A DNA stretch of 25,161 nt. Source: a virus. Taxonomy: Duplodnaviria; Caudoviricetes. The stretch spans positions 1 to 25,161 of IMG/VR virus record IMGVR_UViG_3300017651_000010; one strand, given 5' to 3'. The first letter of the stretch is position 1, and each line of letters opens with the position of its first letter. Of the stretch, positions 15,373-25,079 are shown piece after piece. The notes beneath the pieces were generated by a model. The model saw nothing but the letters and a program-made list of their open reading frames with translations. It was not told the DNA's origin and did no database searches. The position numbers and the translations under genes were made by a program.

Positions 15373-15831
15373 GTGCGAGGTTTTCTCAAAGAATCTTTGC
15401 GTAGCGCGCAAGACCGGAAACCGACAGCAATTGCGGGATCGCTGTTGCAGTTTACTGTGATCATTGCAGTGGCGTCGTTCCTGGATAGTGTCTGTGGCCC
15501 AGCGTTTTGCTTCACCGATAGCTGGAATTTATTTGCTAGTCCATTTCCCGCCCTAGCGTTTTGGGCCGCTTCATTCGCTGTGTCGTTTTTCGCCATGTGG
15601 GCTTTGCTGATGGTGTGGATGTGGGCTCCGATACTGGTCTTTTTCGCAATATCCGAGCGCACAGAGCCTTACCTCGGAGGCGGCAGCACCTTCGTCGGCT
15701 TAGCTGCATCAGTGTTCATGGGGTGGTTTCTATATCGAGTCATTGCGTGGATCGACGATCACCGAATACGATGTCTGCCCCCTCCAGATCACGCGCCCGA
15801 CCGCGACGACGTAGTTAGTCCCGAACAATGA
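15373..15831 (+). CDS. Multi-pass membrane protein (152 aa), antisense moron
   Basis: AAGGA RBS and GTG start; three to four hydrophobic Phe/Trp-rich segments; visibly AT-richer than flanks. Confidence 0.7.
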   Translation: MRGFLKESLRSAQDRKPTAIAGSLLQFTVIIAVASFLDSVCGPAFCFTDSWNLFASPFPALAFWAASFAVSFFAMWALLMVWMWAPILVFFAISERTEPYLGGGSTFVGLAASVFMGWFLYRVIAWIDDHRIRCLPPPDHAPDRDDVVSPEQ

Positions 15832-16268: not shown

Positions 16269-17054
16269 TTACGCTCCGGATTTCGAGGAGGCTGCGCCGT
16301 CCAGCGTTTCCTTCAAGCGCTCCTGGATCTCAGATCGCGCTGTCCACCAATCACCACTCTTGACCGGGACTCTAGCTGAAAGCGTCACACTACTATCGCT
16401 TAGGGTTTCCACTAGGACTTCCGGCTTTGCTCCGGACGCCGAGTAGTCGGTTTGTAGCGACCGAACAACTGATGCTCTGACCTGATCGATGTCCGCTGAC
16501 CTGGGCACGTTGAAAGTCACCTCGACGATACGCGAGCGCTCCCGGCTGTAGTTCAGGATTTTTGCGTTCGATAGCTTCGAATTCGGCGCAAAAATGTAGA
16601 TCCCATCCCTGGTTCTCAGTTGGGTAGAGAACAGTCCGATCTCAACAACCGTGCCAACGATACCCTCCGCATCGATGTAGTCGCCGGCATTAAACGGCCG
16701 AAGGAAAACCAACATTATACCTGCGGCGATGTTCGACAGCGTTCCTTGAAGAGAAAGAGCGATCGCTAGGCCCGCAGCGCCGAGAACCGCTAGGATTGAG
16801 GCTGTTTGCACGCCGAACTGACCTAGCACCACAATTATCGTGACGAACAAAATGGCATACTGAACGACTTGGCCTACGATTGGCGCTACCGTCTGATCGT
16901 GATTCAATCGAACCGCCAAAAATCCTGTCACGTAGCGTGAAATTGTCCGCGCGATGAACCAGCCGGCCACCAAGACAATCAGCGCAACAAACATTGACCA
17001 GACGTTGGCCAGTATCCAAGCGACGGATATCCCGAAAATCGCGTCATTGTTCAC
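16269..17054 (-). CDS. mscS: Small-conductance mechanosensitive channel MscS (moron)
   Basis: Three TM helices; LGAAGLAIALSLQGTLSNIAAGIML..RPF..GD.I...G.V.EIGLFST...PNS...NYS; GAGGAG RBS. Confidence 0.95.
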   Translation of the reverse strand: MNNDAIFGISVAWILANVWSMFVALIVLVAGWFIARTISRYVTGFLAVRLNHDQTVAPIVGQVVQYAILFVTIIVVLGQFGVQTASILAVLGAAGLAIALSLQGTLSNIAAGIMLVFLRPFNAGDYIDAEGIVGTVVEIGLFSTQLRTRDGIYIFAPNSKLSNAKILNYSRERSRIVEVTFNVPRSADIDQVRASVVRSLQTDYSASGAKPEVLVETLSDSSVTLSARVPVKSGDWWTARSEIQERLKETLDGAASSKSGA

Positions 17055-19650: not shown

Positions 19651-20853
19651 TCAGTTGACCGTTGCGGTGGACTTGCCGGCCTTCATGTCGGCAATCATCT
19701 TCGTATAGGCGTCGGCCGTGGACTTGTCGGCGTCACCACTGGTGACAATGCCGTCCTTGACCACGCTGGCGAAAGGATCGGCATCAGCGATCTTCTTCGC
19801 GTCTTCGGCGAGGATGTCGAAACGGGCATCGATGTAAGCCTGGGCCTTATCCTTCACCGCGGCATCGCCGAGCTTGGCGACGACGGCGGCCTTGCGGATA
19901 TCGGCATCGCTGAGACCTTCGGTCTTGACGTCTTTGGCGATGGCCTTGGCTGTGGCGACGAGATCGGCCCGAGCAGCCACGAGGGCGTCGAGTGCTGCGC
20001 CGTCCACGACCTTGGCCTTGAGAGCGTCGATCTCCGCATCCTTCTTGGCGAGATCGGCGTCCTTGGCGGCGATGTCCTTGTCCTTGGCGTCGATTGCGGC
20101 GGCGTGAGCCTTCTCCGCATCGGCGAGCTTGGCTGCGGACGCGGCTTCGCCGTCGGTCAGCCTCTTTCCGGCATCAACGAGCCGCTGCTGGAGCGTGTTG
20201 ATCACCGTGGCGCCCTGGTCGGTCACCTCGACCGGGATACCATCGACGGTTACCGTCTTCAGGGTCATGATCTTTTCCTTTTCGGGTTGGCGATCATTGG
20301 TCACAGGGGCAATGCCCCACGAATTCGCACCGTCGCCGATGCGAGCCTTTGAACCAGCCCGCGCCTTATCCACGATGGCGAGATGGTTGATCTTGATGTT
20401 CGATTGCTGGGCGTCGAAGGCCGAGCCATCCGGTGCCACGCCGTCGCCCCAGACAAGCTCGCAGGTGTAGCCGGCGGACAATTCTCGCTTCCCGCTCTCG
20501 ACGGCCCGGATGGCGGCAGCGTCCTTTAGGATCAGCGGCAGGTGCACCCACTCACCGTCCTTCTTGGCCGCGGTGCTGACCTCGCCAACGGCGAGCTGTT
20601 TCCAGTTGTCGGCCGTCACTGCCTCTGCCGGGTGGCCCATGGTCACCGGAGCGTGCGTGAAGCTCTGGAGACTGTCGGCGGCGAAGACCTGATCGGCCGG
20701 GCGGTAAACGCGCACCACAGACATCTCAGGCTTACCCACCTCGTGACCCGCATAGAGTTGGATGCCGGTGCGGACTGACCGGACTTCGGCAACGAGGTAT
20801 CCATCGGCCGTCCGACGCGTGCCGGACACCGCTACAGCGTCGGTGAATTGCAT
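19651..20853 (-). CDS. Prohead protease/scaffold (DUF2213-like)
   Basis: DGYL, RTGIQ.Y, PVT.GHP, ELSAGY and INHLAIVDKARAG motifs, followed by a coiled-coil scaffold region. Confidence 0.9.
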   Translation of the reverse strand: MQFTDAVAVSGTRRTADGYLVAEVRSVRTGIQLYAGHEVGKPEMSVVRVYRPADQVFAADSLQSFTHAPVTMGHPAEAVTADNWKQLAVGEVSTAAKKDGEWVHLPLILKDAAAIRAVESGKRELSAGYTCELVWGDGVAPDGSAFDAQQSNIKINHLAIVDKARAGSKARIGDGANSWGIAPVTNDRQPEKEKIMTLKTVTVDGIPVEVTDQGATVINTLQQRLVDAGKRLTDGEAASAAKLADAEKAHAAAIDAKDKDIAAKDADLAKKDAEIDALKAKVVDGAALDALVAARADLVATAKAIAKDVKTEGLSDADIRKAAVVAKLGDAAVKDKAQAYIDARFDILAEDAKKIADADPFASVVKDGIVTSGDADKSTADAYTKMIADMKAGKSTATVN

Positions 20854-20856
20854 GGA

Positions 20857-21030
20857 TCAGTCCTTGATGTTCAGGGTACGACGGGTGGAGCGGGCCATGA
20901 TCTGGCGTTGCAAGACGTGGATGCCGTGACGAAATTCGTCGTTGTCGTCAGCATGTTCAACTGGCAGGCGCGTGAAGGCGTTCCACGCATCCACCAAACG
21001 ATCGAAGACTTCGCGCTCCTCGGATGTCAT
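20857..21030 (-). CDS. Unlisted 57-aa helical protein MTSEEREVFDRLVDAWNAFTRLPVEHADDNDEFRHGIHVLQRQIMARSTRRTLNIKD
   Basis: Translated by hand (below the ORF-track cutoff). ATGA overlap with the portal stop; ends 3 nt before the protease ATG; fills the gap exactly. Confidence 0.8.
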   Translation of the reverse strand: MTSEEREVFDRLVDAWNAFTRLPVEHADDNDEFRHGIHVLQRQIMARSTRRTLNIKD

Positions 21031-22877
21031 TCCCCAACGAGTCCCTGCTGCCAGTCCTCGTTGACCTCCTGGAATATCTCCGGACCCAGCACGATCTCAC
21101 CCTGATAGGGCTCGACGTTCGCGAGATCCGGCGCATCCTTGTCGTAGCTGATGGTGATATGCGGCTGGTACTCCGGGTGATCCCACGACGCGCCCTTGTC
21201 AACCATCTCGTCATGACGCCAGCGAAGCATGTTGGAGTTGAACAGCAGGACGCGCGCCTCGCCGAATTTCTCCATCAGTCGGGCACCGCCGCGCGGTATT
21301 TTCACCTCATCTTCCCACGTGCTGCCCATTTCCATCCAATCCACCGGTGTGCGGCTGAATGTGATGGTGACGTGCAGTTCATCGGCTGGCAGCATCGTTT
21401 TGAACCCCTGCCCCTTGGCCCATGCGATGATCTCGGCGGCGTTCAGGACGTCGCGTCGGACATATAGCGTGCGAGGAGCAGCGTCGTTCGCCGCGGACTG
21501 CATCCGTGTCACGTTTGCAGTCTTCGGTGCCTGTGAAACCGCTGCTGCCATAAACTCGTCCTCGGATGGCTCCTGTTCGCTCAGCTTGCCGTATTCTTCC
21601 ATGGCGGCGTCAAGGCCCGGAAGCACGCCATCCTCTACAAGGCGATTGACGAGCGCATCCGAAACGGCCTCACGAGGGATGATCTCCTGACCGAACGTCG
21701 TACCGACGAGTTGCCGGGCAGCATCGGCCGTTAGCTTGAAGATGTCGGCCCGCTCTTTCTCGCTCATCTGCTCCAGAGGAGCCCAGCGATAGTAAACGGC
21801 TGGATCGTGAATTCCCGCTGACCGCTCAAGGCACTCATCCAGTCTCACCATCGCCGGCTGAAACTCCAGCTCCTGCATCGACTGAATGCGGTCGTGATAA
21901 TTCTTCATATCGGCAATCCCGGTCGAATTTAGACCGGCCGGGGACTGGCCGAGGAGACGTGTCACCGGGATGTCAGCAGCGCCCGCCACGATCTGCAGGA
22001 ACGTCATGAGCACATCCGGTAGCCCAGTGAGCTGCGCCGTCTTCGTCTCATACTCTTCCTCTTTATCGAGGAGGAGCGTTCCATTGATGCCTTTGGCCGT
22101 GTTGGCCAAGGTGTATCGCTCCAACAGCTTGCTTCGATAGTCCGCCTGCGCGAGAGACGCCATGAAGTTCGGGATGCGGATGATATCGATCTTCGCCTCG
22201 AACACGAGCGACGCGATGTTCCCCGCGGTGCTGTCCGCGTTCTTCACCGCGTCGAGGGTGGATTGAAGAACACTATCGCCCCAGCCCTGCCCAACATTCG
22301 TGGCAATCTCGTCATCGGCGGGCATCGCGCCAGAGAACAAGACCAACCGCGACGGATGAATGGTGATCTGCTGGCCGTTGTTACCTGCAAGGTTGTAGTT
22401 TTTCGGCTTGCCGTACCATTCCGATTCCGGATCGCGGTCGATCTCGCCGGCGTTCAATTTGCGGCGCGACATCACATTGAGATAGCGGACCCCCCCCTTC
22501 TTGAGACGCTCCACATCGAGCGGTTCGGATGGGTCGGCATCACCCGTTCCGATGTAGATCGCGGCACCACCGAAGAGACGCCCCTTCTGTGCGGCCTCAA
22601 GGATCTTGCCCTTGACATTCAGTCGCTTCTCTTCCTCCTCAATCGCTTCGATCTGCGGTTTCTTCGCCTGCCAATCTCGCCACTTGCGGCAGGCATCAAG
22701 AGCCGGAATGTCCACGATCTTCCGGGGAAGCCAGGCCGTCGTGTATGCGGCGATCAACTGCTCATCGGTCAGATAGGCCTGTGCATAGAAAGAGCCCGCG
22801 GCCTTGTCCCGATCGGTGCCCATCCGCGACACGAGATTTGTCAAGCTGTCGCGAAACAGCGCGATCACATTTGTCAT
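21027..22877 (-). CDS. Portal protein (DUF1073-like) fused to a C-terminal Acb1-like 2H phosphoesterase
   Basis: N-terminal ~450 aa has portal motifs (KIVDIPA.D..R.W, RLFGGA, IHPSRL, AGAADIPVTRLLGQSPAGLNSTG..D..NY.D). C-terminal ~150 aa has LYV, LHVTITFSR and YQPHITISY. Confidence 0.9.
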   Translation of the reverse strand: MTNVIALFRDSLTNLVSRMGTDRDKAAGSFYAQAYLTDEQLIAAYTTAWLPRKIVDIPALDACRKWRDWQAKKPQIEAIEEEEKRLNVKGKILEAAQKGRLFGGAAIYIGTGDADPSEPLDVERLKKGGVRYLNVMSRRKLNAGEIDRDPESEWYGKPKNYNLAGNNGQQITIHPSRLVLFSGAMPADDEIATNVGQGWGDSVLQSTLDAVKNADSTAGNIASLVFEAKIDIIRIPNFMASLAQADYRSKLLERYTLANTAKGINGTLLLDKEEEYETKTAQLTGLPDVLMTFLQIVAGAADIPVTRLLGQSPAGLNSTGIADMKNYHDRIQSMQELEFQPAMVRLDECLERSAGIHDPAVYYRWAPLEQMSEKERADIFKLTADAARQLVGTTFGQEIIPREAVSDALVNRLVEDGVLPGLDAAMEEYGKLSEQEPSEDEFMAAAVSQAPKTANVTRMQSAANDAAPRTLYVRRDVLNAAEIIAWAKGQGFKTMLPADELHVTITFSRTPVDWMEMGSTWEDEVKIPRGGARLMEKFGEARVLLFNSNMLRWRHDEMVDKGASWDHPEYQPHITISYDKDAPDLANVEPYQGEIVLGPEIFQEVNEDWQQGLVGE

Positions 22878-22920: not shown

Positions 22921-23006
22921 TAGGTTTCCGATTTGCCGGGAGGTGCCGACCACCAGCTCGTCCCGGCCATCAGCGCTTTGCACCCCACCTTAGAAAGGGC
23001 ACCGTC

Positions 23007-23483
23007 ATGACCACCGATCAGGAATTCGCCCACAAGTTCTGGAAGTCCATCCGATCCGACATGACCGCTATGGTCGGGACGAAGGATGTTCACCCTAAAC
23101 CGCTCACCGCCCAGTTCGACGGCGACCGAAAAACGATCTTCTTCTTTACCGCCAAGGGTACCGAACTGGCCGAGAGTGCGTCGTCGCCGGTTGATGCGAC
23201 AATTATCTACTCATCCAAGGGTCATGATCTGTTCGCCACGGTCCATGGCAAACTCGAAGTCGACAACGACCCCGTCCTCATCGATCGCCTGTGGAACCGC
23301 TTCGTAGCGGCATGGTTCGAGGAAGGCAAAGACGATCCCAAACTCTGCCTGCTGCGTTTCGAGCCCGGTGAAGCAGAGATTTGGAAAGACGCGTCAAGCA
23401 TCGTCGCCGGTCTCAAACTGTTCCTTGGCATGGGTGATCCCAAAGAGGACTACGAGGATAGCGTCGCTACGTTAAAGCTTTAG
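23007..23483 (+). CDS. General stress protein 26-like, pyridoxamine 5'-phosphate oxidase-like FMN-binding protein (moron)
   Basis: True start ATG 23007 after AAAGGG. Motifs IFFFT, IDRLWNRFVAAWFEEGKDDPKLCLLRF and AEIW. Confidence 0.9.
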   Translation: MTTDQEFAHKFWKSIRSDMTAMVGTKDVHPKPLTAQFDGDRKTIFFFTAKGTELAESASSPVDATIIYSSKGHDLFATVHGKLEVDNDPVLIDRLWNRFVAAWFEEGKDDPKLCLLRFEPGEAEIWKDASSIVAGLKLFLGMGDPKEDYEDSVATLKL

Positions 23484-23492
23484 CAGCAACAC

Positions 23493-23519
23493 CTAGCGGC
23501 CGGCGCGGCTGGCCGCTAG
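23493..23519. terminator. Hairpin between the convergent stress gene and terL
   Basis: CTAGCGGCC-N9-GGCCGCTAG; includes the terL stop codon. Confidence 0.55.
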
Positions 23520-24949
23520 ACATTCATGAGTGTGAATGTGGAGGTGAGGTTCACATTGTCTGCAGCGATCATCGCATCAGCCAGATTGTGAGATTTCACG
23601 CCCAAGTCCTTCTTTAGCTTTGCCTTCGGCACAACGCGCCTCTTTCCCTCGCTCTCGACCCACCATGGCACACAAAGCTCAGTGAAGAGCGCATCAAGCT
23701 TCTCCGCGCCCATCGTTGATGAGAACGACAAGATATCTTCAGGCTTGATTGCCTGCCCCCGTGTGATCGCATTGAATGTGAGCATCGCCCGGCGCGCAGT
23801 GTTTGCCCAAGCTTGAGCCTTTAGGTTCAGGTACTCGTTTTTGTTGAGCGGGCTATTGCTATTCTGCGGGTCGCTCGGCTTCTCGCCGTCCATGACAGCG
23901 CCGCCAGCGTGAAACGCGAAATGCTCGACCTTGGCGCCGTTTTCTTTGTTCTGCTCGTCTATGTAGCCACCGACGAAAGCCCCAACGCCGATCGTGTCAT
24001 ATGATACCGTCGCGCCGGCTAACTTCGCCTTGGCCCAGACCTTCTTCGCGTTTTGGACGAGCTCGTCCTTGCCGGACGACCAGTCCACAGCGTCGGTGAA
24101 GACGCCTTCGATCTTGTCAGCAGTGGCGCACTTGTCTTCGCCGTCATCGGCCGGGTCGAAGCCGATGATGTTACGGCCCGTCAGGCTGATCTTCAGAACC
24201 TGATGAGCATCGACACAGGCGTCGAGCCACCGGCGCTTGAAGATCGAAAGCTCTCCGTCCCCGAGGGGCACACCGCCATAGATGTGCTCGAAGAGTTCCG
24301 GATTCGCTCTCTGCATCGCAGCGATATCGCGCAATGCCTTCTGCGAGAGGAACGGATTTTCCGTCCAGTCGATCTTGTGCACCACCGTGTGCGGCGGAGT
24401 GTTTACGACGAAGTTCTTCCAGACATAGTCGGTGACGAGCTTGGGGTTGAAGAGCAGGATAGCGAGGCTGTCTTCCTTACGGATCGTCGGCCCGATAACC
24501 GTCCATTGCTCCTGGGTGAGGTTTTCCGCCTCCTCCACCCAGAGGATATCGACGTCGGACGTGCCCTTGATGTCCTCCAAATTGCGTTCGATGCCGTAGA
24601 AGATGAACTCCGCGCCGGTGCGCCGGTGGATGATCGTCGTCTTCTGGACGTCGTAGGCAGCCTGCAGCCCCAGATGCGATATCGCCCATTTCAGTTCGGT
24701 GTAAACCGAATCCTGAATGCGGTTCTGGAAGCGCCGGATGCAGAGGACGCGCATCCTGACCGCAACATGGTCGACCAGTCTCACCAACTGGCAGGCCGTG
24801 TCTCGTGTCTTTGAGCTTGACCGGCCGCCGTGAAGAACCGCGATATCGGCTTTGCCGAAGAAGACCTCTTCCCAGAAATCGAACAGCGCCGGGTTGGTAA
24901 GGTGTGCGCTGCTCTCTACCTCTTTTCGCCGCGCAGCACCTGACGCCAT
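23516..24949 (-). CDS. terL: Terminase large subunit (PBSX-like)
   Basis: Walker A HGGRSSSKT, Walker B ILWVEEAE, FNP motif, nuclease GFDPAD and SHNLADA. Start uncertain (24949 or 24973). Confidence 0.93.
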   Translation of the reverse strand: MASGAARRKEVESSAHLTNPALFDFWEEVFFGKADIAVLHGGRSSSKTRDTACQLVRLVDHVAVRMRVLCIRRFQNRIQDSVYTELKWAISHLGLQAAYDVQKTTIIHRRTGAEFIFYGIERNLEDIKGTSDVDILWVEEAENLTQEQWTVIGPTIRKEDSLAILLFNPKLVTDYVWKNFVVNTPPHTVVHKIDWTENPFLSQKALRDIAAMQRANPELFEHIYGGVPLGDGELSIFKRRWLDACVDAHQVLKISLTGRNIIGFDPADDGEDKCATADKIEGVFTDAVDWSSGKDELVQNAKKVWAKAKLAGATVSYDTIGVGAFVGGYIDEQNKENGAKVEHFAFHAGGAVMDGEKPSDPQNSNSPLNKNEYLNLKAQAWANTARRAMLTFNAITRGQAIKPEDILSFSSTMGAEKLDALFTELCVPWWVESEGKRRVVPKAKLKKDLGVKSHNLADAMIAADNVNLTSTFTLMNV

Positions 24950-25079
24950 GTCTTGTCTTCCGATTGCTCCCATTCGCCCGGGGCACCAAGCTCGGCTTTG
25001 GCAGGAGCGTAGCTGCCCTGCATCTTGTTCGCCTCTGCGATGGCAGAGATGGCCACACGCGCGTCCTTCTCCGCTTCCC
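24916..25079 (-). pseudogene. terS: 3' remnant of probable terminase small subunit, cut by an IS21-like element
   Basis: Overlaps the terL start; helical REAEKDARVAISAIAEANKMQG; the upstream part of the listed ORF is IS sequence. Confidence 0.6.

Follow-up and report, generated by a model that had tools for sequence, protein, structure and literature searches.

The DNA analysed here, referred to as the window (a 25-kb virus record of 25,161 nucleotides taken at its full length), carries between its portal and prohead protease genes a small gene whose 57-aa product is predicted to fold as a two-helix hairpin and belongs to an uncharacterised phage protein family, and this family represents a well-founded candidate for a new anti-defence family that is cheap to test, with a putative role as a sponge for nucleotide signals. 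An anti-defence role for the family seems moderately probable, and the narrower prediction, in which the protein is a late-expressed oligomeric nucleotide-signal sponge, is offered tentatively and at somewhat less than even chances. A second pattern, the recurrent cassette of a portal gene fused to an Acb1-like domain and followed by an Acb2-like gene, is better supported than the sponge reading of the 57-aa gene.

The window encodes its head genes, which include terminase, portal, protease/scaffold, cement protein and major capsid protein, on the minus strand, and the features around the small gene are listed in Table 1. The plus-strand reading of 20857-21030 does not correspond to the gene, and it is the minus strand that encodes the 57 amino acids. 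The ATG of the small gene (21030-21028) shares the tetranucleotide ATGA (21030-21027) with the TGA of the 616-aa portal gene, and its stop codon lies 3 nt ahead of the DUF2213 protease gene, whose ATG is at 20853; the preliminary description had proposed an ORF in the gap between portal and protease with an ATGA overlap, and the coordinates, the overlap and the 3-nt spacing were all verified. The same overlap with the portal stop was observed at four other loci (L001, L008, L145 and L151), and the 57-aa gene would be co-translated with the portal-Acb1 gene through it.

Table 1. Features of the window at and around the 57-aa gene.
Feature	Coordinates	Strand	Basis
57-aa two-helix hairpin gene, PHROG 13916, candidate anti-defence	20857..21030	-	ORF, profile match, AlphaFold2, dN/dS
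ATGA overlap of portal-Acb1 stop and small-gene start; coupling inferred	21027..21030	-	sequence
Portal protein PF06381 with C-terminal Acb1-like domain	21027..22877	-	Pfam
Acb1-like 2H phosphodiesterase domain, portal residues 469-611, both H-x-T motifs	21045..21473	-	PF23474
DUF2213 prohead protease/scaffold gene	19651..20853	-	starts 3 nt after small gene
Terminase large subunit, upstream, same strand	23516..24973	-	context

The ORF is short and matches no family in Pfam, NCBIfam or PADLOC, as a spurious reading frame might, and such a reading is effectively refuted already. The gene is more than a product of chance because 154 homologues were recovered among 253 candidates by profile search and the family exhibits a pooled dN/dS of 0.11 over 29 disjoint pairs, indicating purifying selection; both homologues and selection had been named beforehand as checks on the proposal. 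Its GC3 of 0.71 is similar to that of the neighbouring genes, and its orthologue in the P. syringae phage psageB2 is already annotated as a CDS, so that the gene cannot be called hidden in general, as it had been described at the outset.

The profile of PHROG 13916 was matched at an E value of 3e-18 (query residues 1-54 against profile positions 6-59 of 67), and all 97 of the 97 aligned homologues match it as well, with the C-terminal part of PHROG 21487 also being related to the family; the earlier statement that the protein fits no named family has to be given up, though the family itself is uncharacterised. The homologues are mostly 54-100 aa long, and the query, at 57 aa, lies within the size of the sponge class (often <100 aa). 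A degenerate family motif was detected at no fewer than 120 IMG/VR loci, with the total estimated at about 220, and the motif loci together with the other loci fall into 61 groups at 80% core identity. The family is carried by T5-like phages, P2-like phages, lambdoid phages and large Firmicutes phages. The motif AWNAF..LP.EH.DD..EF..GIH.LQ..I.AR, quoted in the preliminary description, is found in the 57-aa protein, and across 152 non-redundant sequences E5, H26, F33 and Q41 are invariant, W16 and H38 are conserved at 99%, and L12, N17, L22, I37, R47 and R51 at 92-97%, the same residues being retained across phages of Proteobacteria, Firmicutes and others. The core of the family is acidic, with a median pI of 5.8. 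PHROG 13916 bears the label 'DNA ligase', which is probably a transfer error inherited from T5-like phages: in Vibrio phage phi 3 the member (L005:2974-3195) is annotated 'DNA ligase' and sits between two real ligase subunit genes, and since the T5-like gene has this position and proteins of 57-73 aa are too small for a ligase, the ligase identity was rejected. Enterococcus tblastn matches (E 0.4-0.8) were also dropped, the locus concerned (L007) having no profile hit, and L009, L010, L013, L014, L072 and L159 were dropped as members for the same reason. Some members have N-terminal extensions with CxxC motifs or other N-terminal domains (PHROG 21487 type), or a C-terminal LRR_5 (P0124); extra domains of such kinds were observed in L026, L048, L068, L084, L106, L003:2701-3180, L027:2941-3477, P0123 and P0124, none of which matched a known sponge family where scanned. 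A search for longer fused forms at 201-2000 aa, which leaves 129-200 aa outside its range, returned two proteins, neither joined to a sponge, and no fusion of the family to Tad2, Acb4 or Sequestin was found.

The helix-loop-helix anticipated from the sequence was reproduced by AlphaFold2, which, from a 97-row alignment, predicts a hairpin of helices 3-20 and 29-56 with a mean pLDDT of 96.6. VIA-align placed T4 Vs.4 (Acb2, 7uq2) at Z 6.4 (rmsd 2.7, 57 aligned), a score shared by unrelated hairpins; its list contained generic hairpins only, with a best Z of 7.5, and the absence of Tad1 and Sequestin from that list does not exclude them. No PDB structure reached E<=0.001 in a Foldseek search, the BFVD search returned four proteins at probability 1.0, all uncharacterised, and the ESM Atlas gave no match above 0.80, with no usable named match for the P0047 query. 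Comparison of the predicted fold is uninformative for so simple a hairpin. Sequence searches of the PDB returned weak local matches only, among them PrgK (8s0u), which was judged a chance match as its E value of 0.001 with an 11-sequence profile rose to 0.43 with a 97-sequence profile. Named immune inhibitors in the PDB or Pfam gave no match to the family.

The portal protein upstream of the small gene comprises PF06381 over residues 40-387 and the PF23474 Acb1 domain over residues 469-611 (E 4e-43), and both H-x-T motifs (H502 and H573) are present in the latter, making it a putative Acb1-like phosphodiesterase. A portal ring with fused Acb1 would display many such domains. The closest cultured portal is that of Rhizobium phage RHph_TM3_3_3, at 76% identity, and at least 80% of the portal-Acb1 fusion is covered in 33 of 1094 portal-matching phage records, Pam3 included. 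Yong-M3-232 encodes its Acb1 part in an ORF of its own (L170:1593-2144). The structural region of the window also holds an MscS channel gene at 16269-17054 (-) and, on the opposite strand, a hydrophobic ORF at 15373-15831 (+), and a pyridoxamine 5'-phosphate oxidase-like gene lies on the opposite strand between terminase and portal at 22995-23483 (+).

The distribution of the small gene differs from that of the head genes. It is absent from all 160 IMG/VR loci (101 groups) fetched with the window portal or Acb1 domain, a set from which very near genomes may have been omitted; the family profile found no 57-aa gene in any of nine cultured-phage portal regions, including those of RHph_TM3_3_3 and Pam3; and a matching small gene occurs in only eight of the 33 fusion-covering records, which represent one P. 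syringae phage group with the gene at the same position. Judged by this distribution, the 57-aa gene is accessory and dispensable for head building in related phages. A minor structural or assembly protein associated with the head or portal would agree with the coupling to the portal gene and with the position between portal and protease, here and in the P. syringae phages; this explanation is very unlikely, given that the gene is missing from all the related portal or Acb1 loci and cultured-phage portal regions just described and that homologues in T5-like, P2-like and large phages lie far from head genes, in line with the earlier description of the protein as no recognised head component.

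The neighbourhoods of other family members were compared in 45 groups with long flanks, leaving out 15 groups with only 300-nt flanks. Most homologues have no neighbouring Acb1 and are often placed in late or packaging regions. In 19 of the 45 groups the gene lies at most three genes away from Q, holin, lysozyme, terminase, portal or prohead protease, and other homologues are found among replication and nucleotide genes, such as the T5-like ligase halves, DnaB, NrdD, NADAR and Macro. The NADAR and Macro domain genes (ADP-ribose processing) directly adjoin family members (L046:2265-2738 and L023:2444-2896). Known sponge families matched none of 222 neighbouring ORFs, taken from crude gene calls on the same strand. 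Among 50 records with the 57-aa gene, many of which are fragments, Acb1 was detected in five, Sequestin in two and PF24729 above its cut-off in none. A near-clade motif retrieved 18 metagenome loci, including the window's own contig, one repeat of L008 and one locus without a profile hit. In six lineages (the window, the L001 group, L008, L145, L151 and L148/L152/L157) the 57-aa gene comes after a PF06381 portal that has Acb1, and in four (L149, L154, L155 and L037) it adjoins a PF06381 portal that lacks it; the adjoining portals share 28-59% identity in the six compared. Because portals with and without Acb1 both precede the gene and are interleaved on a poorly resolved tree, the gene is associated more closely with the portal gene's end than with Acb1, and an obligate partnership with Acb1 was rejected on these grounds and on the low count of Acb1 in the carrier records.

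Many unrelated extra genes use the slot behind the portal gene, where 201 crude ORF calls, many of them spurious, fall into 121 clusters, and its commonest non-structural occupant is the Acb2-like gene (PF24729). Of 76 portal groups with Acb1, 12 have an Acb2-like gene in the 2.5 kb downstream, compared with none of 25 groups without Acb1 (Fisher p 0.026, the groups not being independent), and, with an Acb2-like gene as the query, portal-Acb1 stands directly upstream in 12 of 80 loci. The cassette was seen in L345, L349, L359, L375, L376, L392, L396, L436 and others. Only one of the 80 Acb2-like loci contains the 57-aa gene (L172, identical to L157 over a 1047 nt cassette); in L157, portal-Acb1 is followed by a gene of the Acb2/Tad1 hairpin type (PF24729, E 2e-18; L157:2653-2883) and then by the 57-aa gene, and in its close relative L152 (3132-3755), as in L148, an HNH-AP2 endonuclease replaces the Acb2-like gene before the small gene. 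Several Acb1-less relatives have a PBECR3 nuclease-domain gene in the slot (L163:4038-4397, L416, L425 and L484). The 57-aa gene is thus an alternative or additional occupant of the Acb2-like slot behind the portal, and since so many unrelated extra genes share the slot, its use amounts to weak guilt by association. The pair of enzyme and sponge inside the head operon that had been proposed at the outset is borne out as a gene arrangement for the Acb2-like gene in this slot, and for the 57-aa gene itself the sponge half of the pair stays putative.

As a model, the 57-aa accessory protein would act against host immunity late in infection, in keeping with its presumed late expression. Its hairpin subunits may assemble into a small oligomer that binds a nucleotide alarm signal between subunits, in a predicted pocket containing the near-invariant W16, N17, H26, F33, H38, Q41, R47 and R51. 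Candidate ligands would be a Thoeris signal derived from ADP-ribose or some cyclic nucleotide spared by Acb1, and the sponge would in this way add a specificity that Acb1 and Acb2 lack; the tandem of the two small genes suggests that the specificity of the 57-aa protein differs from that of the Acb2-like gene product. A drift to a new specificity is plausible because Acb2 homologues, according to the accessible text of Hadary et al. (10.1101/2025.08.24.671296), change their ligand from cGAMP to 3'cADPR where the pocket residues differ. The size, the fold and the near-invariant polar and aromatic residues of the family fit the sponge traits given in the available part of Tal et al. (10.1101/2025.07.12.664507). 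The spread of a mobile accessory gene under purifying selection across unrelated phage types also fits a sponge, as do the sharing of one slot with Acb2-like genes, the tandem in L157 and HHalign scores above controls. Speaking against a sponge are the acidic core of the family, as opposed to the positive pockets of sponges, the restriction of the tandem with Acb2 to one lineage, the generic fold, the neighbouring ORFs free of sponge families, the low counts of Acb1, Sequestin and PF24729 in the carrier records, and the position of the gene behind portals both with and without Acb1. Among 124 structure-selected candidates, as far as the available text of Tal et al. reports, anti-defence was verified for only nine, and the 57-aa family may be one of the 124. 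A more specific version, in which the family is a new sponge class that arose from the Acb2 hairpin, diverged far from it and captures in a His/Gln/Arg pocket of its own a signal, maybe an undiscovered one, outside the reach of Acb1 and Acb2, and in which the portal 3' end is a recurrent, translationally coupled anti-signalling cassette (portal-fused Acb1, followed by Acb2, this sponge or both) whose timing matches head assembly, appears doubtful when taken as a whole.

Two other functions were weighed against the sponge. The protein could be a late accessory protein with no immune role, for instance one that assists packaging or lysis timing, modulates host metabolism by binding metal or nucleotides, or has a regulatory function, its gene being carried in late-region insertion hot spots; the proximity of 19 of 45 groups to late genes, the members among replication and nucleotide genes, the unrelated extra genes collecting in the post-portal slot and the two near-invariant histidines, which could bind metal, all agree with it. 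Conflict genes are typically patchy, mobile and strongly selected, and the family has such a patchy, mobile distribution under strong selection, no other non-structural gene fills that slot as often as the Acb2-like gene, and the weak Acb2 profile match exceeds the controls, all of which leave the non-immune function a substantial possibility that is less than likely. It is rather unlikely that the family counters defence by binding a host protein, for instance one that senses portal, terminase, protease or capsid (Avs, CBASS cyclase or ThsB), and is made together with the trigger that it masks. Such an inhibitor would account for the repeated placement of the gene next to terminase, portal and protease genes that belong to several unrelated types, with or without Acb1, and there are precedents in the accessible text of PMC13728456, where Avs sensors bind portal and other structural proteins, and in that of PMC13243611 and PMC13728456, where the small direct inhibitors Tad3-8 are described. 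The residues of the family are, however, constant across phages of Proteobacteria, Firmicutes and others, which a constant small ligand would fit better than a host protein, and no named inhibitor in the PDB or Pfam was matched.

Seven sponge families have been characterised so far, according to the available part of PMC13712596, and with every further family an immune signal is mapped or uncovered. The 57-aa family has a wide distribution, its members are tiny and readily tested, and a probable 'DNA ligase' mislabel has obscured it; the cassette of portal-Acb1 and an Acb2-like gene in the head operon offers a new place for mining anti-defence genes. A literature search through titles and opening abstracts, with subscription papers thinly covered, found no paper on the 57-aa family or on the portal-Acb1-Acb2 cassette.

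Among the known sponges, Tad1, Tad2, Acb4, Lockin and TadIV-1 resemble the family as small accessory phage proteins of the proposed functional class, with no sequence match in Pfam or PDB searches. The folds of Tad1, Tad2, Acb4 and TadIV-1 presumably differ from the 57-aa hairpin. Lockin is mostly beta, as stated in the accessible text of Tal et al. (10.1101/2025.07.12.664507), from which the key residues of Sequestin (PF21825; T4 denB.1), E12/Q47/R61, were also taken. Sequestin is, like the 57-aa family, an all-helical phage protein, of 60-80 aa, and its residues occur in an E, Q, R order like that of E5/Q41/R47-R51; homology was rejected, with none of 97 members matching PF21825 and an HHalign score of 9.35 (probability 0.2%). 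The nearest likeness is to Acb2 (PF24729; T4 Vs.4, PaMx33 Acb2 and Acb2_43), which has two antiparallel helices, a similar size, the same slot behind portal-Acb1 and the start pattern L-S/T-x-x-E in common with the family. HHalign against three Acb2-like sets scored 27.2, 18.9 and 21.7 (probability 39, 13 and 27%), compared with 8-10 for reversed alignments, a maximum of 17.3 for 200 column shuffles and a maximum of 13.1 for 84 windows from 19 other phage families, suggesting a weak profile similarity that lies above all controls, these controls not being matched hairpin families. Membership of Acb2 was not assigned: the 57-aa query has no PF24729 match, one of 97 members matches it over nearly its full length at E 0.057 and 14.1 bits (cut-off 27 bits), and a conserved helix-1 Lys, which presumably has a role in PaMx33 Acb2, is not kept and aligns to a variable A/V/G at position 13 of the family. 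The family starts after, and therefore lacks, the N-terminal arm that holds the base-stacking residue of Acb2 (Y11 in PaMx33, according to the available text of Hadary et al., 10.1101/2025.08.24.671296), and in place of these features it exhibits its own W-N...H...F...H..Q...R signature.
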